Assembly: GCA_964489065.1 (NCBI GenBank)
Contig: CAZAXH010000002.1
Span: 214,177-278,176 of the forward strand
Direction of reading: 5' to 3'
Origin: an uncultured Planctomycetales bacterium
GTDB taxonomy: Bacteria > Omnitrophota > Gorgyraeia > Zapsychrales > JANLHA01
Length of the DNA stretch: 64,000 bases
In this document: piece after piece, positions 13,858 to 63,781 of the stretch
Position numbering within the stretch: the first letter of the stretch is position 1
How the letters are laid out: each line of letters opens with the position of its first letter
The notes under the pieces: generated by a model
The model's database searches: none
What the model was told of the DNA's origin: nothing
Seen by the model: only the letters and a program-made list of their open reading frames with translations
Made by a program: the position numbers and the translations under genes

Positions 13858-13917
13858 CTTCGGGCCCGTTTCAGGACACGGGTAGGTTATGGTTGTTAAT
13901 CCCTCTCATAAGTATCA

Positions 13918-15989: not shown

Positions 15990-16022
15990 AGTTTTCTCCC
16001 CTATTCAGCGAAGGAGTGGACC

Positions 16023-16457: not shown

Positions 16458-16470
16458 TAAGGGATCCATT

Positions 16471-17691: not shown

Positions 17692-17725
17692 AATATTAAA
17701 ATTCGTGGAAGAGGAGAGAGCGGGG

Positions 17726-47970: not shown

Positions 47971-47989
47971 TCACAGAGAGGGGAAACTG

Positions 47990-48628
47990 ATGAATCCGGG
48001 GTTTTTCTTGCCAGGGAGAAAGGTGTTTTGCGCTTTCGTCCTCTTGTCGTTATCGATGCCTACGGTTACCTGGTCAGCTGAAGAAGGGGAGATCCTTATC
48101 TTTGAAGAAAGGGAAGTAAAGAAAGGGAGGGCGGGTAAAAAATACAAGCCTGAAACGACCCTCGGCGTGACGAAAATGAATGAAGACGCGTTGAAGCTTG
48201 TGGACCAGCGGAAATACGATGAGGCGTTGGCTTTATATTTTGCCGCGATCGATCGGGTCAAACAAAAAAGCATCAAAGACGAGGATTTTGAAGCCGAACT
48301 GTTGAACAACACCGCCCGGGCTTTTTATGAAAAAGGTTTTTTCAATTCTTTCAGTTTTTCCGATAATGAAGCCTTCGTCAAAGCCGTTGAGTACGCCTCC
48401 CAGAGTGTTCTTGTCAAGGAAAATTACTGGCCGGCGTACGTAACTTTGGCGGATGTTTTTTATAAATTGAAAGACTATGAAAAAGTCGACCAATTCTTTA
48501 CGAAAGCGGAAGAATATATCGATAAAGATTCCAGGGATTATGAAAAGATTGTTAAGAAACATAATCTGGTAAAAAGGATTCTGGAAAAACAGAAAAAAGA
48601 AGAGGACGGACCTGCCCCGGTTGAATGA
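47990..48628 (+). CDS. secreted TPR-like hypothetical protein
   Basis: signal peptide; helical repeat-like composition. Confidence 0.4.
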   Translation: MNPGFFLPGRKVFCAFVLLSLSMPTVTWSAEEGEILIFEEREVKKGRAGKKYKPETTLGVTKMNEDALKLVDQRKYDEALALYFAAIDRVKQKSIKDEDFEAELLNNTARAFYEKGFFNSFSFSDNEAFVKAVEYASQSVLVKENYWPAYVTLADVFYKLKDYEKVDQFFTKAEEYIDKDSRDYEKIVKKHNLVKRILEKQKKEEDGPAPVE

Positions 48629-48778
48629 TCTCCTTTCCTGACGTGTTTCTTAAGGCCACGCTGGTACCAGCGAAGCGTGGAATATTTATCAAAATACGCA
48701 TAAAAATATTATAGGGCGGCCTGCTTTTTTGTATTGATCATTAAGGCCGGGGAGTTTCTGTAAGAAGAAGAGTTTGAT

Positions 48779-49516
48779 GTGACGGAAGATAAAATAAAAA
48801 TACTGGTTGTCGATGATGATCCTGTGACAAGGCATTTATTGTCTCGTGTCCTTTCTCGCAATAATTTTGAGGTCTCTGTGGCGGTGCATGGGCAGGAAGG
48901 GTTGTCCGTTTATGAAGAAAAGCGGTCGCATATTATTATTCTTGACATCATGATGCCGGTTATGGATGGGTTTGAATTTGTGGCCAGGTTTAAAGCCCGT
49001 TTCGATATCAAGGAAACTCCGATTATTGTTTTATCGTCTCTGTCCAATCAGCAGGATGTCTTCCGGCAGGAGGGGATCAATGACTATATTGTGAAGCCTT
49101 TTAAGTCCGCGCACCTGCTCAGGAAAATCAGGCAGCGGCTCCAGCAGCGCACCAAAAAAATTCTCGTGGTGGATGATGAGCCTGATTTCGTTCACAGCCT
49201 TTCTTTGAGGTTGAGCAACAGTGGCTACCAGGTTATTACGGCTTTTGACGGACTGTCCGCCCTTGAAACCGCTAAGCGCGAAAGACCGGATTTGATGGTC
49301 TTGGATATTATGATGCCCAAGCTGGACGGTTTTAATGTCTGCCGGATGTTAAAATTTGATAATAAATACAAAAACATGAACGTCATCCTACTGACAGCCC
49401 GGGCCGGGGAAGAGACCCGCCGGCTTGGTAAGCAGGTCGGGGCTGATGCGTGCCTGACGAAACCGCATGACGACACCTTCCTTTTGAAGCTCATGAAAGA
49501 ACTTCTGTGGGACTGA
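48779..49516 (+). CDS. response regulator with two tandem receiver domains and no output domain
   Basis: REC1 ILVVDDDPVTRH...IIILDIMMPVMDGF; REC2 ILVVDDEPDF...LMVLDIMMPKLDGF; GTG start. Confidence 0.8.
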   Translation: MTEDKIKILVVDDDPVTRHLLSRVLSRNNFEVSVAVHGQEGLSVYEEKRSHIIILDIMMPVMDGFEFVARFKARFDIKETPIIVLSSLSNQQDVFRQEGINDYIVKPFKSAHLLRKIRQRLQQRTKKILVVDDEPDFVHSLSLRLSNSGYQVITAFDGLSALETAKRERPDLMVLDIMMPKLDGFNVCRMLKFDNKYKNMNVILLTARAGEETRRLGKQVGADACLTKPHDDTFLLKLMKELLWD

Positions 49517-49740
49517 GTCTTTCTCCGTTGTCTCTTCCTGTGTATTTTTTCGTGACTGACTTTCCGCTATCCGCCCGCCCGGGGTTTTTAGTGGCTTCCA
49601 GTGAAAAAATTTTTAAAAGAGTTTACTCGGAGTAAACCCAATGTATAATATTATGGAAGCTCTTGGAAAATAATATTGTTACAAATACTTGACTAAGAAA
49701 TTTTATGACATGGTTTAATGCTTGTATTGATTCTTAATCC

Positions 49741-51684
49741 GTGAAAAAGAAAACTGCGCGCCAAAAACATCCCCAGATTTTTCGACAGCATCTTCTGGAA
49801 GACTTTGTGAACCATATCCCGGATGCGATTTATTTCAAGGATATGAAGGGCCGATTTATTTTTATAAACGCGGCCGGAGCCAAGGGGTTGGGGTTGGCTC
49901 CTGAAGAAGTCCTTGGAAAAACCGACTTGGACGTCTTTCCGCCCCGTCTGGCGAAAAAAGTTATAAAGGACAGCCAGCGTGTTATTAAATCCGGGAAAGC
50001 CATTATTGATCGCGTTGACAAGGTCCCAGACCATTCGGCCGCCGGAGAGGATTTTTATATTTCAACGACGTTGATTCCGCGCTTTGATCATCGGGGGAAG
50101 TGCATTGGAGTCATGGGAATTGCCCGGGACGTGTCCAAACGGATGCAGTTTGAACATCTGCGTGACAAATGGCTGCCGATGGAAAAGAAATTGCTGATGC
50201 TTGAGGAGATGACCCGGGTGAAATCCGATTTCATTTCCGCGGTTTCGCATGAAATCCGCACCCCCCTGGCCATTATCAAACAGCTTTTTATGCTGATTTA
50301 TGATGAAACAGCCGGCCCGATCAATAACCAGCAGCGGGAACTCCTGGTTAAAGCCAATAATAATATTGACCGCCTTCAGCATATCATTGAAGAACTTCTG
50401 GACATTTCCAGGATCGAAGGGCAAAAGTTCAGCCTCAGCTATTCGTTGATTAAGATGAAAGACTTTTTGCTGGACAGCGCGCCTTTCTTTAAGGAGTTTG
50501 CCGCGGAAAAGCAAATTGCCCTCGAATACCGGATGCCCAAGCAGGATATTGCGGTCTTTGTAGACCCGGAGCGTGTTCAGCAGATTATCACCAATTTAAT
50601 CAATAATGCGATTAAATTTACTCCCCCGCACGGAAAGATTGTGGTGGAAGTGAAAGTTTTAAAGTCTAAAGTGCGGGTTGGGGTTCTGGACAACGGCCCG
50701 GGTATTCCGAAAGAAGACCTGTTCAGAATTTTTGAGCGCTTTGTGCAGGTGTCAACGGGTGACGGCGCGAAACGTAAGGGCATTGGATTGGGATTGACGA
50801 TCGTGAAGGCTCTCGTTGAGAAACATGGCGGTGAAATATGGGTTGAGTCCGATGAGGGGAAAGGCAGCCGGTTTTTCTTTACCTTGCCCCGTTTTTACAC
50901 AACGAATATTTTGCCCCCGAAAGTCCGGATCCAAATTAACGCTATGCTTGAGAAACAGAAGTCAGTCAGCCTGGTGAATCTGCTCGTTGTTAATTTTGAG
51001 GATTTCCGGAAAAGGCTTGATATCGACACGAAGAAGATGTTCCGGGATATCCATAAAATTGTTTTCCAGGCGGGCAAGGATGCTTTCAAACGGTTCTCGG
51101 CGGGGGATTATATTTATGTCACGAATTTGAAGGAAGGGGCCGTCAGCGTTGTTTTTCCTTACGCCGTTAAGGAGGAACCGATTTTTTGTGACCTGATCCG
51201 GCAGAGGGTCAAGAATTATTTTCTCAAGAATTCGCTCAATGAAATCTTCATGGCGCTGGGGTTGGTTTCTTATACCAGCGAATCGGTGCGGGGAGAGTTT
51301 GACAGCCAGAATTTTCACATCAAAGAATTATATATCGGCTCGGAAATGAGGCTTTATAAGCGCGTTAAATATCATGTGCGGGTTTGCGTTGCCAGGGGAA
51401 AGGGGGGGGATCTTTTCGCGGACACCCAGGATTTGTCCTTAGGGGGCATTTGCCTGATCATGCAGGCCCCGTTGGCCACAGACGAGCAGGTCGGGTTGGT
51501 GTTTTCGTTATTGAAAATTCGTAAGGAAATATCGGTTCAGGGGCGGGTCGCGTGGGTCAGCCATGTTGAAGATCACTCCATGACCCAGTTTTTGGATTAT
51601 TACCGGATTGGTATCGAATTTACGGGATTGGATAAAAAGCAGCGGGAGATGCTGGCGAAAGAGCTGAGGTTGTATTATGAGTAA
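49741..51684 (+). CDS. PAS sensor histidine kinase with C-terminal PilZ domain
   Basis: PAS, H-box VSHEIRTPLAII, HATPase_c, then a C-terminal PilZ-like domain (RVKYHVRVCVARGKGG...DLSLGGICL...GRVAWV); GTG start. Confidence 0.75.
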   Translation: MKKKTARQKHPQIFRQHLLEDFVNHIPDAIYFKDMKGRFIFINAAGAKGLGLAPEEVLGKTDLDVFPPRLAKKVIKDSQRVIKSGKAIIDRVDKVPDHSAAGEDFYISTTLIPRFDHRGKCIGVMGIARDVSKRMQFEHLRDKWLPMEKKLLMLEEMTRVKSDFISAVSHEIRTPLAIIKQLFMLIYDETAGPINNQQRELLVKANNNIDRLQHIIEELLDISRIEGQKFSLSYSLIKMKDFLLDSAPFFKEFAAEKQIALEYRMPKQDIAVFVDPERVQQIITNLINNAIKFTPPHGKIVVEVKVLKSKVRVGVLDNGPGIPKEDLFRIFERFVQVSTGDGAKRKGIGLGLTIVKALVEKHGGEIWVESDEGKGSRFFFTLPRFYTTNILPPKVRIQINAMLEKQKSVSLVNLLVVNFEDFRKRLDIDTKKMFRDIHKIVFQAGKDAFKRFSAGDYIYVTNLKEGAVSVVFPYAVKEEPIFCDLIRQRVKNYFLKNSLNEIFMALGLVSYTSESVRGEFDSQNFHIKELYIGSEMRLYKRVKYHVRVCVARGKGGDLFADTQDLSLGGICLIMQAPLATDEQVGLVFSLLKIRKEISVQGRVAWVSHVEDHSMTQFLDYYRIGIEFTGLDKKQREMLAKELRLYYE

Positions 51685-52063
51685 GAAGGTCTTGATTGTC
51701 GATGATGAGCAGGATATGGTGTTTGGCCTGCGGATGATGTTTGAGGCGAACAATTTCGAGGTTATGGTGGCTTTTGATGGCCAGGAGGCTTTGAATATAG
51801 CCCGGCAAAGCAGACCGGATATTATGATCCTGGATTTGATGTTGCCGAAGGTGGACGGGTATCGCGTCTGCCGGATGCTGAAATTCGATGAAAAATACAG
51901 GAAAATTCCGATTGTCATGCTGACGGCTCGGACTTCCGCCGAGGAGATGAAGACCGGGATGGACGTTGGCGCCGACGAGTATATTGTCAAACCGTTTGAT
52001 CAACAGGTTTTAATGGATAAAGTGAAGGCCCTGCTGAAACAGAGCGGTTCGTCCGCAGTATAA
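51677..52063 (+). CDS. response regulator, receiver domain only
   Basis: VLIVDDEQDMVF...IMILDLMLPKVDGY...K; overlaps the kinase stop by 8 nt. Confidence 0.85.
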   Translation: MSKKVLIVDDEQDMVFGLRMMFEANNFEVMVAFDGQEALNIARQSRPDIMILDLMLPKVDGYRVCRMLKFDEKYRKIPIVMLTARTSAEEMKTGMDVGADEYIVKPFDQQVLMDKVKALLKQSGSSAV

Positions 52064-52091
52064 TTTTGCAGAGGGCAGATGACGGGAAAAC

Positions 52092-53771
52092 ATGATGCAG
52101 ACAAAACAAAATTTGCGCCGTTATAGAGAAGTGGTGAACCTCCTGCTCAAAGAAGGGTTGATCACGGAAAAGATGCTGGAGTACGCCCGGCAGGAGGCGC
52201 AGATGAGCGGCCTGAATATTGAGAGGGCGCTCATTAAACTTGAGCTGGTGACGGAGGAAGATATTGTTAAGGTGCGCGCTAATGCCCTGGGCATCCCGTA
52301 CATGGACTTAAGCGACTATATCATTGACCCGGAGATCATCGCCATGGTCCCCAAAGAGGTCTGTTTAAAGTTCAGCCTGGTTCCGCTCTTTAAGATCGGG
52401 AACAACATCACCGTCGGGATGGTGGACCCCCAGGACATTGTGGCTTTAGACCAGCTCCGCCGTATCTGCAAGATTGAAAATGTGGACCCTGTCCTGGTTT
52501 CAGAACGGGGCGTCCGGAGGCTTCTCGATTCGAGTTTCGGCATCGGCAGTTCCATTGATGATATTGTTAAATCGATTGATAATGAAGAAACGCAGGAGGC
52601 GGTCACGGAAGTAGGGGCCGGCGCCCCTTTGGTGAGGCTGGTGAACATCGTGATCGCCCAGGCGGTTAAGGATCACGCGTCGGATATCCATATTGAACCG
52701 GAAGAGGACGGCGTGCGGATCCGGCTGCGCGTGGACGGTGTCCTGCAGGAACTTAAGATGTTGCCTAAGAAAATCCAGAGCGGGATCATATCCCGGGTCA
52801 AGATTATGGCGAAAATGGATATTGCCGAGAGCCGCAAACCCCAGGACGGGCGGATCCGGATCAAAATCGAGAATAAGGAGCTGGATTTGCGGGTCTCGAC
52901 TTTTCCGACGATACACGGGGAGAATATCGTATTGCGGGTCCTGGATAAGTCCGCTGTCCTCCTTGGGCTGAAAGAACTCGGGTTTCTCGATGATGAGCTG
53001 CAGGCTTTTCAGAAACTTATCAACCGGCCGTACGGAATTGTGCTGGTCACCGGCCCGACAGGCAGCGGGAAAACGTCAACGCTCTATTCGGCGTTAACGC
53101 AAATTAATTCTGTCGAGAAGAAAATCGTGACCATCGAAGACCCGGTCGAATATGAGTTGTCTCTCATCCGGCAGACCCAGATCAATCCGAAGGCGGGGCT
53201 GACGTTTGCCACCGGCTTGCGCAGTATCTTAAGACAGGACCCGGACATTATTATGGTGGGGGAAATCCGGGACAGGGAAACGGCTGACATCGCGATTCAG
53301 GCGGCCTTGACCGGCCATCTTGTTTTTGCCACGCTCCATACTAATGACGCCCCATCCACGATTTCCCGGCTGCTTGATATGGGCATTGAACCTTTCCTGT
53401 TATCAACGTCGCTGATCGGGATTTTGGCCCAGCGTTTGGTGCGGACCATCTGTTATAAGTGCAAGGACAAAGTCGAAGTCAGCGGCGCGCTGTCTTCCGA
53501 TTTTAATCTGGAGGGGCTCAAACACATTTACCGGGGAAAGGGGTGCCGGGAATGTGACGGTACCGGATTGAAGGGGAGAACCGGGATTTTTGAGTTGTTG
53601 CTTATTAGTGAGGAGATCCGGCGGAATATTGAAACCCGCGCCTCGGCGGATGAAATTCGTAAAATCGCCAAGAAGGCGGGTTTTAAAACGCTGAGGGATT
53701 CCGGCGTGCAGTTGGTCCGGAACGGGATGACGACTCCGGAAGAAGTTCTCCGGGTCACGATGACAGAATAA
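52092..53771 (+). CDS. pilB: type IV pilus assembly ATPase PilB (GspE family)
   Basis: T2SSE_N domain, Walker A GPTGSGKT, Asp/His boxes, tetracysteine CYKC...CREC. Confidence 0.9.
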   Translation: MMQTKQNLRRYREVVNLLLKEGLITEKMLEYARQEAQMSGLNIERALIKLELVTEEDIVKVRANALGIPYMDLSDYIIDPEIIAMVPKEVCLKFSLVPLFKIGNNITVGMVDPQDIVALDQLRRICKIENVDPVLVSERGVRRLLDSSFGIGSSIDDIVKSIDNEETQEAVTEVGAGAPLVRLVNIVIAQAVKDHASDIHIEPEEDGVRIRLRVDGVLQELKMLPKKIQSGIISRVKIMAKMDIAESRKPQDGRIRIKIENKELDLRVSTFPTIHGENIVLRVLDKSAVLLGLKELGFLDDELQAFQKLINRPYGIVLVTGPTGSGKTSTLYSALTQINSVEKKIVTIEDPVEYELSLIRQTQINPKAGLTFATGLRSILRQDPDIIMVGEIRDRETADIAIQAALTGHLVFATLHTNDAPSTISRLLDMGIEPFLLSTSLIGILAQRLVRTICYKCKDKVEVSGALSSDFNLEGLKHIYRGKGCRECDGTGLKGRTGIFELLLISEEIRRNIETRASADEIRKIAKKAGFKTLRDSGVQLVRNGMTTPEEVLRVTMTE

Positions 53772-53801
53772 ACGGCAGTCTGTAAAGGAGTTTGGGCCAT
53801 C

Positions 53802-54860
53802 ATGGGGATTTTAAAGAGAGCCCCGCGGGTTAAATTTGCCGAACTTAATATGTTCACCCGGCAGCTTTTCACCCTTCAGAGAGCCGGGTTGCCTATGCTG
53901 ATGAGTCTCCATGCTATCCGGGATCAGTCGGAAAGCGTTATGTTCAGGGATGTGATCAGCCGTGTGGCGGGGAAAATCGAGGCCGGCTCCAGCCTGTCTG
54001 AAGCGTTGGCGATGTTCCCGTCGGTCTTTAATTCGATTTATGTGAATATGGTTCATTCCGGAGAAGTGGCCGGAAAGCTGGAACACATTCTTGAGCGATT
54101 GGCGACCTTGGGGGAACATGATGAAAAGGTCCGGCTCCATATCAAATCCGCGATGCGTTATCCCCTGATTGTGGTTGCGACTTTGATCATGGGGTTTGTT
54201 TTCCTTGTCCTGTTCGTCGTCCCCAAATTTACCAATATGTTTGCCAAGTTTGATACGGCGTTGCCTCTCCCGACCCAGTTGCTGCTGCTGATTTATAACA
54301 CGATCGTGCATTTTTGGTGGGTGGTGCTGATCATCCTGGGCCTTTGTTTTTTCGCGTTTTTAAAATTTGTGCAAACCCGGAAAGGACGGTTTATCCGGGA
54401 TAAGGTCCTGTTGAGGCTTCCCGTTTTTGGCCCTATGATCCAGAAGATCAGCCTGTCCCGGTTCTGCCGGATAACATCTACCCTTTTAAGGAGCGGGGTT
54501 CCGATCCTGACGATCCTTGACCTGGTCAAAGGGACCTCGGAAAATTCCGTTATCGCCGAGGCTATCGAGAATATTAAAAACAGCGTCAATGACGGCAAGG
54601 GCATGCTCGCACCGATGAAGGCCAGCGGCTTGTTTCCCCCGGTGGTGACTCAGATGGTTTCTGTGGGGGAAGAAACCGGAAAACTGGATGAACTTTTGGT
54701 GCATGTGGCGGATTATTATGATTCCCAGGTGGAATACACGATCAATAATCTTGTGTCGATGATTGAGCCGATTCTGATTATTTTTTTGGGCAGCACGGTG
54801 TTGTTCTTGGCTTTGGGCATTTTTATGCCTATGTGGAGCCTGATGAAACTTTTTAAATAA
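53802..54860 (+). CDS. pilC: type IV pilus platform protein PilC (GspF family)
   Basis: two T2SSF domains with 3 TM helices. Confidence 0.85.
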   Translation: MGILKRAPRVKFAELNMFTRQLFTLQRAGLPMLMSLHAIRDQSESVMFRDVISRVAGKIEAGSSLSEALAMFPSVFNSIYVNMVHSGEVAGKLEHILERLATLGEHDEKVRLHIKSAMRYPLIVVATLIMGFVFLVLFVVPKFTNMFAKFDTALPLPTQLLLLIYNTIVHFWWVVLIILGLCFFAFLKFVQTRKGRFIRDKVLLRLPVFGPMIQKISLSRFCRITSTLLRSGVPILTILDLVKGTSENSVIAEAIENIKNSVNDGKGMLAPMKASGLFPPVVTQMVSVGEETGKLDELLVHVADYYDSQVEYTINNLVSMIEPILIIFLGSTVLFLALGIFMPMWSLMKLFK

Positions 54861-55051
54861 AGGGGCGGGGATAATTTTTCTTAATTTTTACTAGACTCTT
54901 TATGGTATCAAGCTATATTAAGAAAGGACTGTATCCGGAGATTTCAAGAGTTTTTTAAAAAAGGAGTTGTGAGGTTATAGGCAGGGGGCTGTTTTAAACT
55001 AGGCATGTTTATTAAAATCTAAAATTAAGGCTTACCAAAAGGAGGAGCGGG

Positions 55052-55420
55052 ATGAACAAAAAGGGATTTACGTTGATTGAGTTGATTATGGTGATTGTTA
55101 TTTTGGGGATTCTGGCGGCTGTGGCCATTCCACAATATTTTAATCTGCAGGATGACGCGAATGAAGCGGCCGAGAAAGGGATTATCGGCGGGGTGAGAGC
55201 GGGTATCCAGACGTATTTCGCAAGATATAAGGGGTGGCCTTCGACATTGGATTCCGCAGCCGCGGGCGACTGTTCCACCACCAACGTCTGTTTTGACAAT
55301 GTCTTGGCCCAGGGCGGGGTCACGGAAAATTGGAGCGTGGACGCTTCCGGAAACTATGTCGGGCCGAACGGCGGCTCGTACGAATATGACTCTTCCGACG
55401 GCTCTTTTGAAACACCGTAA
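55052..55420 (+). CDS. type IV major pilin (prepilin with N-terminal methylation motif)
   Basis: KGFTLIELIMVIVILGILAAVAIP class III signal; RBS AAAGGAGGAG. Confidence 0.85.
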   Translation: MNKKGFTLIELIMVIVILGILAAVAIPQYFNLQDDANEAAEKGIIGGVRAGIQTYFARYKGWPSTLDSAAAGDCSTTNVCFDNVLAQGGVTENWSVDASGNYVGPNGGSYEYDSSDGSFETP

Positions 55421-55453
55421 AGGCGTTGTTAATATTTGTTATGAAATCGTATA

Positions 55454-55490
55454 ATGCCGGCTATGTCTTGTTGAAAGGCATAGTCGGCAT
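55454..55490 (+). other. 12-bp stem hairpin immediately 3' of the pilin gene (possible stabiliser/attenuator; no U-tract)
   Basis: atgccggctatg-tcttgttgaaagg-catagtcggcat (one G·U). Confidence 0.4.
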
Positions 55491-55529
55491 TGTCACAATG
55501 GCCAGAGGCATGACGCCAGGGGACACGGG

Positions 55530-55919
55530 ATGACGGAGAAGAAGGGGTATATTCTTATTGTGGATGATGAAGAAATTATCATCGAGATGCTTTTAAGGCG
55601 CATATTGATAGACCCCCAAATCCCCCTGGAACCGCTTGTGGCGAGAGACGGCTACGAGGCTTTGGAGCTTATGCGGCGGTTTTCCGTCAGCGTTGTCATC
55701 CTGGATATTCAGATGCGCAACCTGGATGGGTATGAAGTGATCCGGCAAGCCAAGGCCGAAGAAGCCCTCCGAGATATTCCGATTGTTGTATCGTCCGGGG
55801 TGGTCGATAACGAGGCCAGAGTGCGGCTGGCTGCTTTTCAGATTACTCATTTCCTGGATAAGCCCTACACATTCAATCAGTTTCTTAAAAAGATCCGGGA
55901 GGTTCTCTCTCTCGATTAA
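55530..55919 (+). CDS. response regulator, receiver domain only (inside the pilus cluster)
   Basis: ILIVDDEEIIIE...VVILDIQMRNLDGYEV...K. Confidence 0.8.
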   Translation: MTEKKGYILIVDDEEIIIEMLLRRILIDPQIPLEPLVARDGYEALELMRRFSVSVVILDIQMRNLDGYEVIRQAKAEEALRDIPIVVSSGVVDNEARVRLAAFQITHFLDKPYTFNQFLKKIREVLSLD

Positions 55920-56025
55920 GGGACGACCGCTTGCCTCGCAGGGTTAAACTGCTCTTCCTTGTTATCGCTGAACGCGTTCCAAAGAACATAAACAATCCGT
56001 TTTCTGTCGTTACAGAAGTTGAAAA

Positions 56026-57144
56026 TTGAATATGTCGCCAGAAATCCACCCGATAAGAAAACAAGCCGGCGTTATTCTTTTGACAATGGTGCTGTTGATC
56101 GTTGTCGCTTCTATTTCCATTTACGGCGTGACGGTTTTTATTGTGGAACGCCTGGCCGCCTCCTCAACGCGGGCGGCGCAACTGGAAACAGTTTATCTGG
56201 CGCAGGCGGGAATCCACCGGGCCCTGTATGATTTTCGGAATCATGACGTGTCCGGGAACGGTTATTTTTCCATCGGGCAAACGGATGTCGACTCAAAACG
56301 GTTTTTTGTCATCGGAGGGGATCCGGCGGATTTCCTGCTCGTGGACACCTCCCAGGTTGTTTTGGGGGGAGAATATTCTCCCGCGGAATGCCGGGCGATC
56401 GGCCGGGTATGCCGGGACGAGTGTACGGCCGACCGGGCGGACTGTTATGCTGTCTGCGATAGTGAGCGGGCCGTCTGCCGGTCGGATGCCTACGCTGTTT
56501 ATCAGGCCTGTGTCGCGCAATGTCCCTCGGGTTGGCAAGGATGGTTGTGCCGGTTACAGTGTCAAACGGCCCTGAATTCGGCTTACTTGGCCTGCGATCA
56601 GGCCAGGACCGATTGCCGGGACCAGTGCTATGATGATTATTCAGACTGCCGGGCGGAGTGTATCGAGGAACAGGAGGCCTGTATTGACGGGAATAAACTG
56701 ACCGGGCTGACAATTCAGAATGTCACCGATTCCAACACCATTACGATCGACCGTATGCGGGTTTCCTGGGATAATACCCGTCGTTTACAACAAATCGTCA
56801 TAAACGGGCAGCTCCTCTGGAGCGGGAGTGTGTCCAGCCCGGCCAATGCCAATTTAACCCCGGATTTCACTTTAAATGCCTCGCAGACGGTTTATGACAT
56901 CGATTATCTTCAGTTCTCCGGGAGCATGGCGGATGCCACAACCGCCGATATTGAATTCATTATGTCCGACGGATCATCCAAGACCGTGACGGCTTATCCC
57001 GCGTCCGATGCCGCTTTAATCACTGTGCGTGCCACCGGGAAAATAACCGGCTCGGAGGTCTATAGGACCATAGCGGCCACGTATGATGTGGGGACGGGAA
57101 CCGTAAGCGCTTGGGAGGAAACTGATGAAGAAATTTCTCCTTAA
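56026..57144 (+). CDS. PilX-like pilus protein with cysteine-rich insert
   Basis: N-terminal PilX_N-like TM segment (KQAGVILLTMVLLIVVASISIYG...AAQLETVYLAQAGIHRA); ~110-aa segment with 16 Cys (CRAIGRVCRDEC...CRAECIEEQEAC). Confidence 0.6.
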   Translation: MNMSPEIHPIRKQAGVILLTMVLLIVVASISIYGVTVFIVERLAASSTRAAQLETVYLAQAGIHRALYDFRNHDVSGNGYFSIGQTDVDSKRFFVIGGDPADFLLVDTSQVVLGGEYSPAECRAIGRVCRDECTADRADCYAVCDSERAVCRSDAYAVYQACVAQCPSGWQGWLCRLQCQTALNSAYLACDQARTDCRDQCYDDYSDCRAECIEEQEACIDGNKLTGLTIQNVTDSNTITIDRMRVSWDNTRRLQQIVINGQLLWSGSVSSPANANLTPDFTLNASQTVYDIDYLQFSGSMADATTADIEFIMSDGSSKTVTAYPASDAALITVRATGKITGSEVYRTIAATYDVGTGTVSAWEETDEEISP

Positions 57145-57526
57145 TCCGTGCCGCGGCGTGACCCTCATCGAGCTGGTCATGACCATGGTGGTTTTGGGCA
57201 TTGTCGCGGTGCCGTTGACGCTCATGATGTATGAGCATGTTGAAGGCGTTTTCCTGTCAGCCGATCACCTGCTGGCGGTCCAGCTTGGCCGCATGGAAAT
57301 GGAACGCCAGAATAATATGGCGTATGACAGCCTTTTAACCGTATCCCAATTCAATTATCAGGGCTATGATTTTGACGTTGCGGTGACCGTCAGCTATGTC
57401 CAAGGCAACGCCTCCAGTGCGGAGAGTTTAAAATCGGTTCAGGTTGAAGTCACGAAGCACGGGTCTTCGGACGTTTTAGCAAATTTTATTACTTATCGTG
57501 TGAAAAATGTGCAAATTGGAGTATAA
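57125..57526 (+). CDS. minor pilin / pseudopilin (prepilin-type N-terminal cleavage/methylation domain)
   Basis: RGVTLIELVMTMVVLGIVAVP. Confidence 0.75.
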   Translation: MKKFLLNPCRGVTLIELVMTMVVLGIVAVPLTLMMYEHVEGVFLSADHLLAVQLGRMEMERQNNMAYDSLLTVSQFNYQGYDFDVAVTVSYVQGNASSAESLKSVQVEVTKHGSSDVLANFITYRVKNVQIGV

Positions 57527-58073
57527 TCGAGGCAATGGTTTTACATTGATCGAATTGATCATGGTGATCGTGATCGTCGGGATACTTGCTGTCCCGGCGG
57601 CCTATATCATGATGCATTTTGTGCAGAACACCGTTTATCTCCCCGGGCAGATGACTACGGACATGATCCTGGAACGGATTCAGGATGTCGTGATTGAAGG
57701 GGACGCGACGGCTAAAGGCTTGCGCTTCAGCCGGGCGATGAGTTCTATCGCGGACAATGACCTGACTTTTGTCAATCAGGATGGGGACACGGTCCGCTAC
57801 CGTCTGGATACAGGGAACGGGAATTTGTACCGTTCGATTAACAGCGGGACGGAGTTGCTGGTCCCGTATTATCTGCCGTCCGGAGTCACTGTCAGCGGGT
57901 TGAACGGCGCGCTGTTTACGTATTATAACGCCGCGGAGGCCGAAACCGCAACGGTCCAGGATGTCCGCTGGATCTCCGTGGGCCTGATGGTGAAGGACGG
58001 GGCGGGGGATGTGGAACGATGGGAAGGCCGCAGTGAGGGGCTTTCTGCGGTTTATGTCCCGCGTTTCCAGTAA
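57507..58073 (+). CDS. minor pilin / pseudopilin
   Basis: NGFTLIELIMVIVIVGILAVPAAY. Confidence 0.75.
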   Translation: MCKLEYNRGNGFTLIELIMVIVIVGILAVPAAYIMMHFVQNTVYLPGQMTTDMILERIQDVVIEGDATAKGLRFSRAMSSIADNDLTFVNQDGDTVRYRLDTGNGNLYRSINSGTELLVPYYLPSGVTVSGLNGALFTYYNAAEAETATVQDVRWISVGLMVKDGAGDVERWEGRSEGLSAVYVPRFQ

Positions 58074-58111
58074 CCGGCAGGGCACGGGAAAACCAGACAC
58101 GTTAAAATACC

Positions 58112-59971
58112 ATGTGGATAGATCGTCTTGAAATAATTTGGAAAGAACTGCGGAAGAAGCCGATTGAATTTTTAGCCATCGACGTCGCGCAGGGGGTCGC
58201 CAAAATCATTTATCTGGAAAAGATCCGGGACCACTGGAAAGTGTATAAGTATCGGGTCAAGCCGTTGCCGTTTTCGGAAAATCCCGATGTGCAACCTTTT
58301 GTTCAGTTTGTTCAGGATTTTATTCAGGAGAATGGCATTGAAGCCCAAGACGTGATTTTGAGCATTTCCGACGCGGATGCCCTCGGCGTCGCGTATCTCC
58401 CCGCCCCGGATCTTCCCCGGAAAGAAGATGTTTTGGCCGCTGTCCGTCCTCAATTGAAGGAAGAAGTCTTGTTTGACGTGGCAGAGGCCTATGTTGACTG
58501 GCAGGTCGTCAGGGATTCCTATGAGGAGGAAGGTAAAAAGAAGAAAGATTCCGCTTTTATTGCCGTTAAGAAAAATATTTTAGACCATTATTTAAAGGCC
58601 TTGGCTTCGTGCGCGCTTCACCCTGTTTGCGTCACCACGAATGTGCTGGCGTACAGCCATTTATTGCAGTCCTTGTCCTATGAGCCCAAAAACTGCGCGG
58701 TCCTGGATTTGGATTTTCAGCAGTCGACGTTGACATTTTTTATCAATAATAAGATCCACTTTTCCCGGAATATGCCGATTTCCTGGGAAAAAATCACCCA
58801 GTCTTTGACGGAGATACTGGTTTCCGACAAGGGCAAAATCGAATTGACTTATGAAGAAGCCGAGGAGATCAAAAATACTGTTGGGTTCCCTTCGGGAACT
58901 TATGATGAAAACCGTTTCATCCGGGACAATGTCCAGTTAAAGCATGTGGTGTCCATGCTCAGGCCTATTTTGGAGGTTTTAAGCCGGGAATTGAAATTTT
59001 CTTTTGATTATTACGCCGCCAATTCTAACGCGGAGCCACCAGCGGTTCTTTACATCACCGGCGGTGGTGCGAATTTAAAAGGGATGGATCAGTATTTAAG
59101 CCGGGAGATGGGGATTCAGGTGTGTCCCTTGCCGGTTCCCGGACTTTTTGATTTTGAAGCGGTCCCTGAACTGGGGAGGCCCCGGCCGGACCTTCTCGCG
59201 GCCGGCCAAAAAAAAGAAACAGCCTCCGGGCCGCTGGCGGGTGCCCCCGGGCCAAGCGAAGAACGGAAAAACAGGATTATCAATGCTGCCGGAGCCAACC
59301 AGGTTTTGCATACGGCGGACTTAAACGGCGGCTCTTTGCCGGGTCTGGGGGCGGTTCTCGGGATAGATAAGACCTCCCAGGGGAATGAAACCCTGGATGT
59401 TTTTTGCAGCCAGCTTACGACTCTTTTGGGGGCGGTGTTAACCCCTCGGGACGGCGTCAACCTTCTGCCGCCGGAGATTAAGCGTAGAAAGATTGATCAA
59501 TTGGAGAGGATATGTATCCGGGTCGGCGGTATCACGGCTGTTTTTATCATGCTGCTTCTGGTGATGGTGGTCAAGTTGCAAATCAAGGATTTCAGCCGGA
59601 GATTGTCCGCCGCACAGATTCATTTGTCAGTTATTAAGGAAATTGAAGACGCAACCGTCCAGTTAAATGAGAGTACGCTTTTTCAGGAAAAACTTTTGGC
59701 GGAGCACCTTCCGCTGGAAGGGGTTTTAAAGGTTGTTAGCGCGTCCATCCCCCGGCAGGTTATCCTTCGCCGGATGAATTTTAATCAGGGCTCGAATCAA
59801 ATTAGCCTGGATGGAGTTGTTGCCGAAAAAGCGGAGTTGGCGGAACAAATTTTGACTACGTTTATGCAGGATATGGAGAAGAGTTCTTTTATCGCGGACG
59901 CGACGATTGTTTCGATAGAAGGGGTGGGAGGGATCCATAATTTTTCTATAACCTGTGACCTGGTAAAATAG
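58112..59971 (+). CDS. pilM: PilM-PilN fusion (actin-like ATPase PilM fused to bitopic PilN)
   Basis: ~360 aa PilM-like domain, low-complexity linker, then LLPPEIKRRKIDQLERI + TM helix + PilN-like C-terminus. Confidence 0.7.
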   Translation: MWIDRLEIIWKELRKKPIEFLAIDVAQGVAKIIYLEKIRDHWKVYKYRVKPLPFSENPDVQPFVQFVQDFIQENGIEAQDVILSISDADALGVAYLPAPDLPRKEDVLAAVRPQLKEEVLFDVAEAYVDWQVVRDSYEEEGKKKKDSAFIAVKKNILDHYLKALASCALHPVCVTTNVLAYSHLLQSLSYEPKNCAVLDLDFQQSTLTFFINNKIHFSRNMPISWEKITQSLTEILVSDKGKIELTYEEAEEIKNTVGFPSGTYDENRFIRDNVQLKHVVSMLRPILEVLSRELKFSFDYYAANSNAEPPAVLYITGGGANLKGMDQYLSREMGIQVCPLPVPGLFDFEAVPELGRPRPDLLAAGQKKETASGPLAGAPGPSEERKNRIINAAGANQVLHTADLNGGSLPGLGAVLGIDKTSQGNETLDVFCSQLTTLLGAVLTPRDGVNLLPPEIKRRKIDQLERICIRVGGITAVFIMLLLVMVVKLQIKDFSRRLSAAQIHLSVIKEIEDATVQLNESTLFQEKLLAEHLPLEGVLKVVSASIPRQVILRRMNFNQGSNQISLDGVVAEKAELAEQILTTFMQDMEKSSFIADATIVSIEGVGGIHNFSITCDLVK

Positions 59972-59973
59972 TT

Positions 59974-60552
59974 ATGAAAAATTGGCAGGCGTTGTCAGTC
60001 ACCGAACAGAAATATGTTGAAATAGGGATATTGCTTTGCCTCTTCTTGGGGCTGTTCTTGGGGGTCTATTTCCCCGCTTACAGGGAGTTGCGGACGGTTA
60101 GATCAGAGCTTAAGGGGGGAGAAGCGGAAATTGACAGGATAGAATTGATGGCCGGGAAAAATCGTGATATTAAACAAGGCTTGAAGGAGTTGCAGGACGA
60201 GATTGCCCTTTTCCGCCACCGTTTCCCCGAGAAAGAAGACCAGGGTGTCAAAGCACTCGCGGATACCGCCCGGAATCACAATTTGGAAATTGTCTCCACC
60301 CGCATAGGAATTCAACGTAAAAGTACGGATAATAAAAACAGGGCTTTAAAATTTAGAGATGCAGAATGCGGCTTTATCTCTGTGACGGGTCAGTTCAAAG
60401 GCCGTTTCCAGGATCTTGTAGGCTATTTTGAGGAGTTGGAGACCAGCCCGGAATATTTTGTCACGGTGGAGCGGCTGGATTTGGAACGGGTTGACGCCAC
60501 CGAGGGGATATTAAGTATTGCCGTTGAGTTAAAACTTTATTTATTGGGATAG
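59974..60552 (+). CDS. pilO: type IV pilus assembly protein PilO
   Basis: single N-terminal TM, coiled coil, PilO-like C-terminal domain; 192 aa. Confidence 0.65.
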   Translation: MKNWQALSVTEQKYVEIGILLCLFLGLFLGVYFPAYRELRTVRSELKGGEAEIDRIELMAGKNRDIKQGLKELQDEIALFRHRFPEKEDQGVKALADTARNHNLEIVSTRIGIQRKSTDNKNRALKFRDAECGFISVTGQFKGRFQDLVGYFEELETSPEYFVTVERLDLERVDATEGILSIAVELKLYLLG

Positions 60553-60560
60553 GCGCCCGT

Positions 60561-61040
60561 ATGCATAAGAAGGATAAAATTCAAATTGCCGTCACCGGGG
60601 TGCTGGTTGTTATCCTGGCCGTTATTTTGGCTACCGGGGTGGGCAAAAAGGGCAGGAAGAAGAAGAGGTGCCTTCCTGTCGTCCGGGCCGGAACCTCGGC
60701 GTTGGCTGCCAAGCCTAAATCTCCGGCACCGGCATCTTCGTCACCGGTAAAATTGTCGCCTTTCCGTCAATTGCAGGCCGAGGCCCAGAGTATGACGCTG
60801 GTGCGGGATCCGTTTACTTTAAAATCAATTGAAAAAGAAGACGGAGAGGCGGCTGCGCAGGAAGTTGAATTTTACTTGATCGGCATTGCCTGGGATTCGG
60901 CCCAACCTAAGGCGATTATCAATAATAAAATCGTTCAGGTCGGCAGCCAGTTGGGCCGTTACACCGTGATGGAGATTTCTGAGAACAGGGTGATCTTGTC
61001 GGATGGGGCAGAAAAACTTGAATTATTGCTGGAACTGTAA
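60561..61040 (+). CDS. PilP-like pilus assembly lipoprotein/periplasmic protein
   Basis: N-terminal TM/signal, Pro/Ser-rich linker, C-terminal beta domain (GIAWDS..KAIINNKIVQVGSQLGRYTV..I..NRVIL). Confidence 0.55.
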   Translation: MHKKDKIQIAVTGVLVVILAVILATGVGKKGRKKKRCLPVVRAGTSALAAKPKSPAPASSSPVKLSPFRQLQAEAQSMTLVRDPFTLKSIEKEDGEAAAQEVEFYLIGIAWDSAQPKAIINNKIVQVGSQLGRYTVMEISENRVILSDGAEKLELLLEL

Positions 61041-61528
61041 TTCTCCTGGCCCCCGTTGGGCTGGGGGGTGTTTAACAGACGTGAGTTGATAAAATTGCGT
61101 TCGGTTGTTGAAGACGCTATAATTATTCCCATTTCCATGATGCTTGGGCCCGTCGCAGGAAGAAGTTTTATCTTAAAAAGGAATGCCTGAAACGAAGAGA
61201 AACCGTCTTGGCGATAATTTTTCCGTCGAGAAAAAATAATGTCGTTTAAGAGTTGACTTTTTGTTTTTTTTCTATAAGATTGAATCATGTTGTTTTGTTC
61301 AACTGTGATGTTGTAAAAAACAAATTGAATTTTGATGCCATAACCACGAGTCCCGGTTTTATATGATGTTCTTGATATTCCATCCTTTCATGATCCAGCC
61401 CCGAAGCCTTGTTGCCGCATGGGGGGTGTTCAATGTCTCCTGCATTTTTAAAAGGTTCTGTTAGTGTCCAGCCGCCCTCATGCCTAGGGCAGGGACGTGG
61501 ATTTGGTGTCGGCACGATTTTTTAAAAA

Positions 61529-61544
61529 ATACAATATATAAGTT
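61529..61544 (+). promoter_or_regulatory. NrdR box 1
   Basis: ATACAATATATAAGTT, partial match to the acaCwAtATaTwgtgt consensus; 31 bp upstream of box 2. Confidence 0.55.
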
Positions 61545-61554
61545 TATTTAAATA

Positions 61555-61583
61555 TTGACACACAATATGTTGTGTGGGATAAT
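61555..61583 (+). promoter_or_regulatory. nrdDG promoter (TTGACA-17-GATAAT) overlapping NrdR box 2 (ACACAATATGTTGTGT, 61560-61575)
   Basis: near-perfect NrdR palindrome embedded between -35 and -10. Confidence 0.7.
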
Positions 61584-61660
61584 GGCTTTACTTCAGAAGA
61601 ACCTAGTAAATCAATCCGTAATATATTACCAAAGACATTATAGAGAAAAGGGGGTGTTTG

Positions 61661-63781
61661 ATGCAGGCAACGGGTACCATTGTCAGCATTGTGAAACGCA
61701 ACGGTAAGGTTGAAGATTTCCTTCCGCAGAAAATTACCACGGCTATTCTCAAGGCTGGACAAGCCACGGGTGAATTTGATGAGCCTATTGCCCGCAATCT
61801 GACGATTCGCGCTGTCAATATCGCTCATCAGCTATTCGCGGAACGCTATCCGAGCGTGGAAGATATTCAGGATATCGTTGAGGAAGTCCTTATCACATCT
61901 CCTTACAAAAAATCTGCGAAAGCCTACATCATCTACCGGGATCAGCACTCTAAAATCCGGGAGATTACCTCTAAGAGTCAGGTCGGGTTGGTGGATCAGT
62001 ATTTGGAACGGTTGGACTGGAAAGTCAACGAAAACAGCAATATGGCTTATTCTTTGCAGGGCCTTAATAATTACATATCGACGGAAGTTACAAAAATATA
62101 CTGGCTAAATAAAATTTATTCTCCGCAGGTCAAAGAGGCCCACCGCGACGCCCGGTTTCACATTCATGATTTGGGACTCCTGAGTGTTTACTGTGTCGGG
62201 TGGGATTTGCAGGACCTGCTAAAGAGCGGCTTCCGGGGCGCTTCCGGGAAAATGGAATCGGCACCGGCCAAGCATTTCGGCAGCGCTTTGGGGCAGATCG
62301 TCAATTTCTTTTACACTTTGCAGGGAGAGGCGGCCGGGGCGCAGGCGTTTTCAAATTTTGATACCCTTTTAGCTCCTTTTATCCGGTATGACAAGCTGAC
62401 ATATGATGAGGTCAAGCAGGCCCTTCAGGAGTTTGTTTTTAACCTTAATGTTCCGACGCGGGTTGGCTTTCAGACGCCGTTTACCAATCTGACGCTGGAT
62501 TTGCACGTTCCGTCTCTCTTTGCCGATGTCCCGGTGATTATTGGTGGCAAGCCGCAGAAAGAAACCTATAAAGATTTCCAGGGAGAAATGGATATCCTTA
62601 ACAAGGCCTTTCTGGACGTGATGCTGGAAGGGGATGCGAAAGGGCGCGTCTTTACTTTCCCCATTCCGACGTATAATATTTCCAAGGATTTTGACTGGGA
62701 CAACCCCAACTTGAATCTTTTGTGGCAAATGACGGCGAAATACGGGATCCCGTATTTCGCAAATTTCGTGAATTCCGATATGAACCCGGAAGATGCCCGC
62801 AGTATGTGCTGCCGGTTGCGTCTGGACAATCGGGAGCTCCGCAGACGCGGGGGCGGGCTGTTCGGCGCTTCGCCTCTCACCGGGTCCATCGGAGTGGTGA
62901 CGATTAATTTGCCTCAAATGGGGCATGTCGCCACGGATGAACAGGATTTTTATACGCGGCTTGAACATCTGATGGTTTTAGCGAAAGAGAGCCTGGAGGT
63001 CAAAAGGAAAGTGCTGGAAGAGTTTACGGATTCCGGCCTTTACCCGTATTCCCGGTATTATCTGCGCCAGGTTAAAGAGCGGTTTTCCCAGTATTGGAAA
63101 AATCATTTCTCCACGATTGGGCTGATCGGGATGAATGAAGCTTGCCAGAACCTCTTGGGGGTTAACCTCGCTTCGCCGCAGGGACGGGATTTTGCCTTGC
63201 GGGTTCTGGATTTTATGCGTGATAAACTTATGCAGTTCCAGGAAGAAACCGGAAACAATTATAATTTGGAAGCGACGCCTGCGGAAGGCGTGTCTTACCG
63301 CATGGCCAAAATAGACCAGGAACAGTACCCGGACATCATTTGCGCCAATTCCTGCTCCTGCCAGGAAGGAGCCGAACCGTTTTATACAAATTCGACGCAT
63401 CTGCCGGTTAATTATTCCGATGACATTTTTCAAGTCCTGGAACTTCAGGATGATCTGCAGGCTAAATATACTGGGGGGACGGTGTTGCATATTTTCGTGG
63501 GGGAGAGGATTGCAGATGTCGAAGCGCTGAAGCAACTGATAAAGACGGTCTGCACCAAATACCGGCTGCCGTATTTTACGATCACCCCGACATTCAGCGT
63601 CTGCCCGAATTGTGGTTATATTGCCGGTGAGCATAAATACTGCCTGAAATGTGAGGATGAATGCGAGATTTATTCACGCGTTGTCGGATATCTGCGTCCT
63701 GTCCAGCAATGGAATAAAGGGAAGAAAGAGGAGTTCCTCAAGAGAAAGACGTATCGGATATGCAAATCGGAGGATTCTTAA
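61661..63781 (+). CDS. nrdD: anaerobic ribonucleoside-triphosphate reductase (class III)
   Basis: ~700 aa; C-terminal glycyl-radical motif RVVGYLRP and Zn-ribbon CPNCGY...CLKCED; RBS AAAAGGGGG. Confidence 0.9.
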   Translation: MQATGTIVSIVKRNGKVEDFLPQKITTAILKAGQATGEFDEPIARNLTIRAVNIAHQLFAERYPSVEDIQDIVEEVLITSPYKKSAKAYIIYRDQHSKIREITSKSQVGLVDQYLERLDWKVNENSNMAYSLQGLNNYISTEVTKIYWLNKIYSPQVKEAHRDARFHIHDLGLLSVYCVGWDLQDLLKSGFRGASGKMESAPAKHFGSALGQIVNFFYTLQGEAAGAQAFSNFDTLLAPFIRYDKLTYDEVKQALQEFVFNLNVPTRVGFQTPFTNLTLDLHVPSLFADVPVIIGGKPQKETYKDFQGEMDILNKAFLDVMLEGDAKGRVFTFPIPTYNISKDFDWDNPNLNLLWQMTAKYGIPYFANFVNSDMNPEDARSMCCRLRLDNRELRRRGGGLFGASPLTGSIGVVTINLPQMGHVATDEQDFYTRLEHLMVLAKESLEVKRKVLEEFTDSGLYPYSRYYLRQVKERFSQYWKNHFSTIGLIGMNEACQNLLGVNLASPQGRDFALRVLDFMRDKLMQFQEETGNNYNLEATPAEGVSYRMAKIDQEQYPDIICANSCSCQEGAEPFYTNSTHLPVNYSDDIFQVLELQDDLQAKYTGGTVLHIFVGERIADVEALKQLIKTVCTKYRLPYFTITPTFSVCPNCGYIAGEHKYCLKCEDECEIYSRVVGYLRPVQQWNKGKKEEFLKRKTYRICKSEDS

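Follow-up and report, generated by a model that had tools for sequence, protein, structure and literature searches.

The stretch of DNA analysed here (the window: 64,000 nucleotides of contig CAZAXH010000002.1, from an uncultured bacterium of the phylum Omnitrophota) carries, between positions 48779 and 61040, genes for a type IV filament machine together with genes for a histidine kinase and response-regulator receivers. We lean, with slightly better than even confidence, towards reading this block as a single Omnitrophota cluster in which the filament machine is combined with a dedicated cytoplasmic module – a kinase that bears a PilZ domain, plus receivers – while the secretin and the prepilin peptidase are encoded elsewhere. 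A preliminary description of the window listed 13 tightly spaced open reading frames (ORFs) on the + strand of this region, and every one was recovered at its position. Intergenic spacing is tight or overlapping from the receiver (REC) gene to the PilC gene, and again from the Cys-rich gene to the PilP-like gene. The genes of the block and its two neighbours are:

48779..49516, + strand: tandem receiver (REC-REC), 245 aa (Pfam Response_reg x2, E 4.7e-52)
49741..51684, + strand: soluble sensor histidine kinase, 647 aa (Pfam PAS_4, HisKA, HATPase_c, PilZ)
51677..52063, + strand: single-domain CheY-like receiver, 128 aa (Response_reg, E 6.6e-30)
52092..53771, + strand: PilB/GspE-type assembly ATPase, 559 aa (T2SSE plus MshEN, E 5.9e-140)
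53802..54860, + strand: PilC/GspF platform protein, 352 aa (T2SSF x2, E 7.8e-57)
55052..55420, + strand: major pilin or pseudopilin, 122 aa (N_methyl, E 1.2e-08)
55530..55919, + strand: second single-domain receiver, 129 aa (Response_reg, E 2.8e-18)
56026..57144, + strand: membrane-anchored Cys-rich protein of no family, 372 aa (conserved in the cluster)
57125..57526, + strand: minor pilin 1, 133 aa (N_methyl, E 1.9e-06)
57507..58073, + strand: minor pilin 2, 188 aa (N_methyl, E 2.4e-07)
58112..59971, + strand: PilM-PilN fusion, 619 aa (PilM_2, residues 23-337; PilN, residues 539-616)
59974..60552, + strand: PilO/GspM-like bitopic protein, 192 aa (sub-threshold T2SSM and GspM_XpsM)
60561..61040, + strand: PilP/GspC/GspB-like protein, 159 aa (alignment of orthologues and fold matches)
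47990..48628, + strand: secreted TPR protein, 212 aa, possibly associated with the cluster (sub-threshold TPR matches only)
from 61658, + strand: nrdD, downstream of the pilus block (domain call)

The kinase is the centre of this reading. Its domains are arranged as follows:

49807-50142, + strand: PAS domain (Pfam)
50221-50421, + strand: HisKA domain with H170 (Pfam, 57 bits)
50563-50889, + strand: HATPase_c domain (Pfam, 113.6 bits)
about 50914-51276, + strand: palm/ferredoxin-like middle domain, residues 392-512 (predicted fold)
51349-51657, + strand: canonical PilZ domain, residues 537-639 (Pfam PF07238)

That the C-terminal domain is a PilZ domain, as had been proposed, is borne out by the Pfam profile (PF07238: 53.9 bits against a gathering threshold of 22.5, E 2.4e-14), which also matched all 20 orthologue kinase fragments (best E 6.4e-17). 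The expected motifs are in place – R537-L-Y-K-R541 and D564-L-S-L-G-G569 – and in an alignment of 23 kinase orthologues (42-94% identity) R537, R541, S566 and G569 are invariant while D564 is kept in at least 90%. H170, N289 (N-box) and the G-box glycines are likewise invariant across the 23 sequences: the H-box His and the N and G boxes place the protein among HisKA-type kinases. It has no hydrophobic segment and is therefore cytoplasmic. An AlphaFold2 model of residues 392-647 (predicted local distance difference test, pLDDT, of 82) resolves two domains, the second of which is a barrel resembling the PilZ domains of Alg44, YcgR, MrkH, PA0012 and BcsA in their cyclic di-GMP (c-di-GMP)-bound form (Foldseek E 5e-08 to 1e-04; TM score on target 0.68-0.80). 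Profile hidden Markov model, motifs and predicted fold thus all point to the canonical c-di-GMP-binding type, and the domain is a predicted binder.

The domain that precedes PilZ (about 120 residues) is modelled as alpha-beta-alpha-alpha-beta-beta-alpha-beta, and its only structural matches are the palm domains of adenylyl cyclases and Cas10, which are weak (Foldseek E about 1e-03). No Pfam family matched it at E<=10 in any of 20 members, and a profile of the kinase C-terminus run against Protein Data Bank (PDB) sequences gave marginal matches to Alg44 PilZ and none to the middle domain. A degenerate GGDEF domain was considered and dropped, there being no sequence signal and no GG(D/E)EF signature: we describe the segment as a palm-like domain on the strength of the model, do not call it GGDEF and assign it no function.

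The PAS-HisKA-HATPase-PilZ architecture is common to at least 120 cluster representatives (42-94% identical to the kinase of the window), all of them Candidatus Omnitrophota wherever a name is given, and a search of 1.84 billion proteins with a profile of the two-domain C-terminus brought up no more than 47 representatives at E<=1e-30. Judged from these matches the kinase-PilZ module is a small family, essentially restricted to Omnitrophota. (A contig scan made with the full kinase alignment caught generic HATPase motifs; most of what it returned was unrelated kinases of many phyla, with few Omnitrophota loci.) No paper on a kinase-PilZ fusion was found in the literature searched, and the regulator appears to be undescribed so far.

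The gene for the adjacent receiver begins before that of the kinase ends: the two genes share 8 nt, from the receiver start at 51677 to the kinase stop (ATGAGTAA). The overlap as such had been noted before, and one of this kind suggests translational coupling. The CheY-like protein it encodes (51677-52063) is the probable cognate phospho-acceptor of the kinase, and the term "orphan", which the preliminary description had applied to the receivers of the block, does not suit a protein coupled in this way. All four REC domains of the block keep D12/D13/D57/T-or-S87/K109 and are by sequence phosphorylatable: the pocket of the adjacent receiver reads D/D/D/T/K, that of the receiver at 55530-55919, which lies between the pilin and minor-pilin genes, D/D/D/S/K. 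The tandem REC-REC protein (48779-49516) has no output domain, and a gene of this kind also immediately precedes that of the kinase in L001, L085, L088, L089, L094/L095 and L101 (labels are explained below). The receiver within the operon (55530) is present in L001 and L084-L089 and absent from L002, L098 and L116. An output domain, DNA-binding or enzymatic, is found in none of the proteins of the block; with no DNA-binding output at hand, it is reasonable to infer that phosphorylated receivers act on the pilus motor post-translationally.

The association of kinase, receiver and pilus genes extends well beyond the window. Linkage was counted in 60 related loci (labelled L###, or P#### for contigs) from gene tables plus annotation made in this analysis. 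A REC gene comes immediately after the kinase in 40 of the 55 loci with enough sequence, and pilB is the next gene after that receiver in 16 of 40. Where the kinase is at least 45% identical to that of the window, pilB comes next in every sampled locus with enough sequence, 20-70 nt after the receiver and amid many flanking contexts. The order kinase-REC-PilB-PilC-pilin...PilMN-PilO-PilP is kept in L001, L002, L084-L090, L098, L100 and L116, and the same order from kinase to PilP is found on the P0016 and P0135 contigs. In one lineage (L092 3252-8802; L093 3-3592) a second set of motor genes, three ORFs for PilB-like ATPases and one for a PilC-like protein, lies immediately upstream of the kinase-PilZ gene, and the regulator is there therefore flanked by two filament systems.

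What kind of machine the cluster encodes is less sharply defined. Its ATPase clearly belongs to the PilB/GspE superfamily (T2SSE 466.6 bits, MshEN 67.7 bits) and carries the Walker A motif GPTGSGKT plus two CxxC motifs, yet it stays below both equivalog cutoffs: 607.3 bits for PilB (TIGR02538, cutoff 675.65) and 592 bits for GspE (cutoff 630). The MshE-related c-di-GMP motif (NF053729) scores 31.2 bits over residues 17-61, below its cutoff of 38; inspection by eye shows substitutions at RLG and at Q in the first MshE-type motif, and the Pfam MshEN match is to a generic N1 domain (residues 66-150). A second, direct c-di-GMP input at PilB is thus possible, though unsupported by these motifs. PilC starts 30 nt after pilB and matches positions 56-398 of the 401-position GspF profile (329 bits, cutoff 424): it is without the N-terminal ~55 residues, as are the short forms in L001, L085 and L086, whereas the orthologues in L002, L144 and the P0135 contig, at 404-406 aa, have T2SSF_N. 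The 122-aa pilin has a class III signal (MNKKG|FTLIE) and passes TIGR02532 (36.1 bits, cutoff 16.3), while its match to GspG (43.6 bits, cutoff 88.85) covers the N-terminal part only. Minor pilin 1 overlaps the neighbouring genes by 20 nt, and minor pilin 2 gives weak NCBIfam matches to GspH and GspJ.

The alignment subcomplex is recognizable to varying degrees. The fusion protein passes PilM_2 (54.8 bits) and falls just short of PilN (22.5 bits, cutoff 22.8), with 93 bits against TIGR01175 (cutoff 133); its topology is that of GspL, with an actin-like PilM part, a linker, one transmembrane helix (464-495) and a periplasmic PilN part. It also matches weakly (47.8 bits, cutoff 650) the Amuc_1101 family, PilM-like proteins of about 600 aa from the pilus-like cluster of Akkermansia, and long PilM-type proteins may be common in the Planctomycetes-Verrucomicrobia-Chlamydiae (PVC) group. 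Of the labels "PilO" and "PilP-like" given earlier, what stands is a set of sub-threshold matches – T2SSM at 23.1 bits, GspM at 21.2, GspC_delta at 22.7, and T2SSB – rather than family membership. The PilO-like protein has a membrane anchor at residues 12-37, and its P0016 orthologue matches PilO weakly. The PilP-like protein begins with a membrane anchor, carries an RDPF motif and has, towards its C-terminus, a beta domain of the homology-region (HR) type. The 159-aa protein itself has no Pfam match, and a profile of it gave nothing meaningful against PDB sequences; among ten orthologues, T2SSB was matched in eight (best E 8.9e-05) and T2SSC in three. A fold search with a single-sequence model, in which only the C-terminal 60 residues are confident, placed at the top the GspD-bound HR domain of GspC, the PilP proteins of Myxococcus and Pseudomonas, GspB of Dickeya and the HR domain of PulC (3oss_C, 3jc8 PilP, 4wfw, 2y4y, 6hcg), at E values of only 0.03-0.8. 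The protein is orthologous to the product of the gene directly upstream of the L144 secretin (hhalign probability 99.3%, E 1e-20). Taken together, alignment and model indicate that the last gene of the cluster retains a secretin-coupling HR-type domain.

Set against the definitions of known systems, the cluster falls between them. The PilM/PilN/PilO/PilP subcomplex expected of type IVa pili (T4aP) may be there, PilM_2 passing, PilN just under its cutoff and PilO and PilP represented by sub-threshold and HR-fold matches; the PilB equivalog is not reached, and PilQ, PilT and PilD are not in the window. The TXSScan model of the mannose-sensitive haemagglutinin (MSH) pilus makes mshA, mshE, mshG, mshL (the secretin) and mshM (an AAA ATPase) mandatory (PMC6668835); secretin and AAA ATPase are missing from the locus of the window and both are found in L144 and on the P0135 contig. 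A type II secretion system (T2SS) is not indicated by its own definition either, with no secretin in the locus and GspE, GspF and GspG all below cutoff. The closest NCBIfam models are GspF for PilC, GspG for the N-terminus of the pilin, and GspM and GspC for the last two proteins. The cluster resembles MSH loci and T2SS in its compact single locus, in having PilM and PilN functions in one GspL/MshI-like protein, in its GspM- and GspC-like partners and in the lack of a peptidase in the locus (PMC6668835), and sister Omnitrophota clusters resemble MSH further in that they run into a short secretin gene with an ExeA/MshM-like AAA ATPase gene behind it. It differs from MSH in lacking those two genes, in gene order and in reaching no equivalog cutoff. 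Because the scores lie below cutoffs, the fusion is GspL-like and sister clusters hold the secretin and ExeA-like pair, the system is best seen as a divergent machine of the type IV filament class, placed between T4aP, MSH and T2SS. A TXSScan-based study counts the Omnitrophota clusters as T4aP, in most genomes of all classes, and proposes that the pili serve attachment to host cells (PMC10066038). Those clusters share with the present one their phylum and kind; the linkage to a non-respiratory F-type ATPase highlighted there is absent here, and c-di-GMP, PilZ and secretins have 0 occurrences in that study (PMC10066038).

One component resists classification. The Cys-rich protein encoded at 56026-57144 had been labelled PilX-like, a name that finds no backing: neither the protein nor any of 11 orthologues matches a Pfam or NCBIfam family, and all that it shares with prepilins is a conserved Gly ahead of a hydrophobic anchor (residues 9-44). 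Alignment separates a conserved core from a clade-specific Cys-rich insert of about 100 residues with 16 Cys (residues 122-219, window 56389-56682), which is present in the clade of the window, L084 and L100 and absent from L116, L098, L002 and L144. Cysteine spacing in the insert is two-fold symmetric – C-x6-C-x3-C-x6-C-x3-C-x6-C, two CX3C pairs, then the first pattern repeated – and suggests that an extracytoplasmic protein of the pilus cluster, in a strict anaerobe, carries a helical bundle which is disulfide-stapled or binds metal.

In agreement with the preliminary description, no Secretin, PilT-type or prepilin-peptidase domain was detected in any large ORF of the 64-kb window. Nor do pilQ and pilT, whose presence there the preliminary description had named as a refutation, lie just beyond it, as far as can be judged from syntenic relatives whose kinase is 84% identical: the 10 kb past nrdD there contain nrdG, a NiFe hydrogenase, Fur, FeoAB and HypF, and no gene for a secretin, PilT or PilD. 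In other lineages the PilP-like gene is followed at once by ArsR plus MMPL, DnaX, LexA or a receiver. A longer form exists in L002 and the P0135 contig (kinase 48% identical) and in L144 (no kinase), where the cluster continues into an STN-Secretin gene, then an AAA_22 ATPase of ExeA/MshM-like type, then a protein of ~155 aa; this last pair of genes is located at:

L144, 11495-12744: secretin-downstream ATPase and ~155-aa protein
P0135 contig, 11596-12866: the same pair
L143, 11624-12897: the same pair

Omnitrophota secretins of this family consistently have this pair behind them. The ATPase (265 aa, ExeA/MshM-like) has as its best NCBIfam match the XrtA/PEP-CTERM-associated ATPase (291 bits, cutoff 324.5), and the trio of secretin, AAA_22 ATPase and ~155-aa protein is what the cluster of the window is without. 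The PilM-PilN fusion had been taken as the arrangement of secretin-less or monoderm-like systems; since it is present in all three secretin-bearing clusters (L002, L144 and the P0135 contig) it is no mark of such systems. Omnitrophota relatives carry the lipid A genes LpxC/FabZ, LpxA and LpxI, and the phylum is therefore diderm. A reading of the system as monoderm-like and secretin-less is not supported. The pilins have prepilin-peptidase (class III) signals and there is no peptidase in the locus: essential parts must therefore be encoded elsewhere. We infer that the secretin, the prepilin peptidase and any retraction ATPase reside at other places in the genome. The absence of the secretin is most likely a matter of gene location, and a single locus without pilQ, pilT and pilD is ordinary for such loci: T4aP systems are usually multi-locus and MSH loci are always without a peptidase (PMC6668835).

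Several results weigh against the reading that we favour. All core machine proteins lie below their NCBIfam equivalog cutoffs. About eight distinct lineages, with at least five downstream contexts among them, have a cluster that stops short of a secretin, and this short form is old and stable. No secretin match fell on the cluster-bearing contigs of 3.36 Mb, 703 kb, 592 kb, 361 kb and 350 kb among the matches listed (the best 120 of 242 and the best 120 of 1233 in protein searches with Omnitrophota secretins), a result that is weak either way. No active diguanylate cyclase is seen in the window, where the sole GGDEF protein (PAS-GAF-GGDEF, membrane-anchored, 29693-31390) has AQDEF in place of GG(D/E)EF, is probably inactive as a cyclase and was dropped as a supplier of c-di-GMP for that reason. 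Where the kinase is at most 44.7% identical to that of the window, pilB is next in none of the loci; and in L141 the kinase-REC pair is found between a pilin-like gene and archease/RtcB/seryl-tRNA synthetase (SerRS). Since the distant subfamily is not beside pilB, linkage to the pilus operon is not obligatory for the module.

Some of these observations can be turned into a different account of the missing genes: the machine may be truly secretin-less, its secretin and ExeA-like ATPase lost, with a filament that stays beneath the outer membrane (an endopilus or pseudopilus piston) or passes through a non-cognate channel. Besides the recurrent short form and the lack of a matching secretin on large contigs, there is no PilT in the locus, PilC, pilin, PilO and PilP match T2SS families best, and PilMN has the GspL topology. 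Yet an HR-type protein is kept and conserved whose sole characterised role is binding the N0 domain of a secretin; the secretin searches were shallow, with the best 120 matches seen in each; multi-locus layout is the rule for T4aP (PMC6668835); and PilD, which must exist, is likewise absent from the locus. We judge a secretin-less machine unlikely. That the same scores betray a T2SS, with a pseudopilus exporting proteins instead of an adhesive or motile pilus, is to our minds very improbable. GspF (329 bits), GspG (for the N-terminal part of the pilin only), GspM and GspC_delta are the best NCBIfam matches, GspE at 592 bits nearly equals PilB at 607, the fusion is GspL-like and PilT is missing here too; all these scores, however, lie below equivalog cutoffs, the best match of the ATPase remains T4a PilB, PilM_2 and PilN are what Pfam recognises, there are just three candidate minor pilins in place of GspH-I-J-K, linked secretins are named PilQ by JGI and NCBI, and TXSScan-based work counts the Omnitrophota systems as T4aP (PMC10066038).

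A further alternative concerns the regulator and not the machine. The kinase-PilZ/REC pair might be a general Omnitrophota two-component switch responsive to c-di-GMP, incidentally adjacent to pilus genes and with targets other than the pilus motor. In 24 of the 40 related loci with enough downstream sequence no pilB follows the receiver; L144 has REC-PilB...secretin without a kinase; and in L141 housekeeping genes (Lpx, archease, RtcB, SerRS) surround the pair, with MORN, TPR and a 393-aa N_methyl protein upstream of the kinase and the lipid A genes further upstream. Against this stand the proximity of pilB in every sampled locus with enough sequence where the kinase is at least 45% identical, the receiver directly before pilB in L144 even without a kinase, the two additional receivers in or beside the operon in the clade of the window, and the pilin-like gene by which the kinase of L141 is still closely preceded. 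We regard a general switch as rather improbable. The distant kinase-PilZ plus REC subfamily comprises L114, L121-L137 and L141 (for example L141 8807-11151).

On the favoured reading – a filament machine with its own PilZ-kinase/receiver module – a regulatory pathway can be outlined. The PAS domain would sense an intracellular (cytoplasmic) cue; c-di-GMP bound to the cis-fused PilZ domain would change the autokinase, phosphatase or phosphotransfer activity of the kinase; and the phosphorylated, output-less receivers would contact PilB, or PilM/PilC, and so switch filament assembly on or off. The lineage of the window would represent a short form of the cluster, a sister lineage still ending in secretin, ExeA/MshM-like ATPase and small protein. 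Such a c-di-GMP/two-component reading is plausible and is strengthened by conservation. Its strictest version – the PilZ kinase makes receiver phosphotransfer dependent on c-di-GMP, the receivers switch the motor by contact, and the clade has shed its secretin and ExeA-like ATPase – we hold to be tentative and, as a whole, unlikely. CckA and ShkA are c-di-GMP-binding kinases, and PilG and PilH of the Pil-Chp system are CheY-like regulators of pilus motors.

The literature offers partial parallels to each step. SgmT is a c-di-GMP-binding kinase (PMC3509222), and the PilZ adaptor HapZ is cited as gating phosphotransfer of the SagS kinase at high c-di-GMP (in 10.1101/2020.02.11.943704). In HapZ-SagS, CckA, ShkA and SgmT, as would be the case here, c-di-GMP is sensed by a histidine kinase, or at one, and alters the flow of phosphate through a two-component system; the receptor there is a separate PilZ protein, a catalytic and ATP-binding (CA) domain, a pseudo-receiver or a GGDEF I-site, whereas here PilZ is in cis, behind a palm-like domain, and a pilus operon houses the pathway. 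PilB is under c-di-GMP control through FimX-PilZ in Xanthomonas or through MshEN domains (PMC8389850, PMC11656802). The likeness to MshE and FimX-PilZ-PilB is that a c-di-GMP receptor adjoins, and presumably acts on, PilB, and that PilB has an MshEN-type N-terminus; the difference is that the signal here would run through receiver phosphorylation, and that the PilZ domain, a free non-binding adaptor in the FimX system, is here canonical, intact in its motifs and fused to a kinase. The tandem-REC protein DrdR of Xanthomonas campestris stimulates the ATPase activity of PilB and PilT, to both of which it binds (PMC13507683). Like PilG/PilH and DrdR, the receivers of the block are output-less and stand beside pilus genes, and DrdR too is REC-REC; one of its domains is a pseudo-receiver, however, while both tandem domains here look functional from their residues, and in place of the CheA, methyl-accepting chemotaxis protein (MCP) and CheW of Pil-Chp, none of which is present, the input is a classical HisKA kinase.

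Omnitrophota are abundant, uncultured and mostly ultra-small (PMC10066038), and a phylum-restricted kinase with an intact PilZ domain before pilB is a testable entry point to the control of their pili. If the proposed pathway is true, a pilus would be connected in a new way to second-messenger and two-component signals, in bacteria believed to attach to other cells or to prey on them, and c-di-GMP acting in cis on a two-component phosphorelay would be a mode not yet described for PilZ. A machine without its own secretin would imply, if true, a sub-outer-membrane filament or a shared channel; the secretin question is of lesser weight than regulation by the kinase-PilZ protein.

Immediately before the block, between a DHODH-like (dihydroorotate dehydrogenase-like) gene and the tandem-REC gene, lies the gene for the 212-aa TPR protein (47990-48628), which has a single N-terminal hydrophobic segment (residues 12-30); its position is the same in the closest relatives, L001 and L085. 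TPR proteins (PilF/PilW, MshN, TadD) help secretin assembly in other systems, with no tie to this protein. The remainder of the window reflects the metabolism of an anaerobe – pyruvate:ferredoxin oxidoreductase (PFOR), NrdD, RtcB/archease, GH57, ADP-forming acetyl-CoA synthetase – plus other two-component genes. Archease/RtcB and a MORN protein are encoded at 10257-13474, 36 kb upstream of the kinase. The two-component genes form a dense run at 13486-18088 and 6610-9237 (REC, dCache-HAMP kinase, REC, REC-kinase, REC, dCache-HAMP-PAS hybrid kinase), and are possible cross-talk partners of the pilus-linked receivers.

An Rfam scan of 47500-64000 found no RNA family, the 618-nt gap before nrdD included. 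Terminator-like sites are at chance level (19 vs 18.5 expected); promoter-like sites are enriched (37 vs 14 expected), which is uninformative alone. The best promoter-like site of the region (61555-61583; 11/12 matches plus an extended -10 TG) lies in that non-coding gap (61041-61660), upstream of nrdD, whose product on record begins at ATG 61661 (706 aa) and not at TTG 61658.

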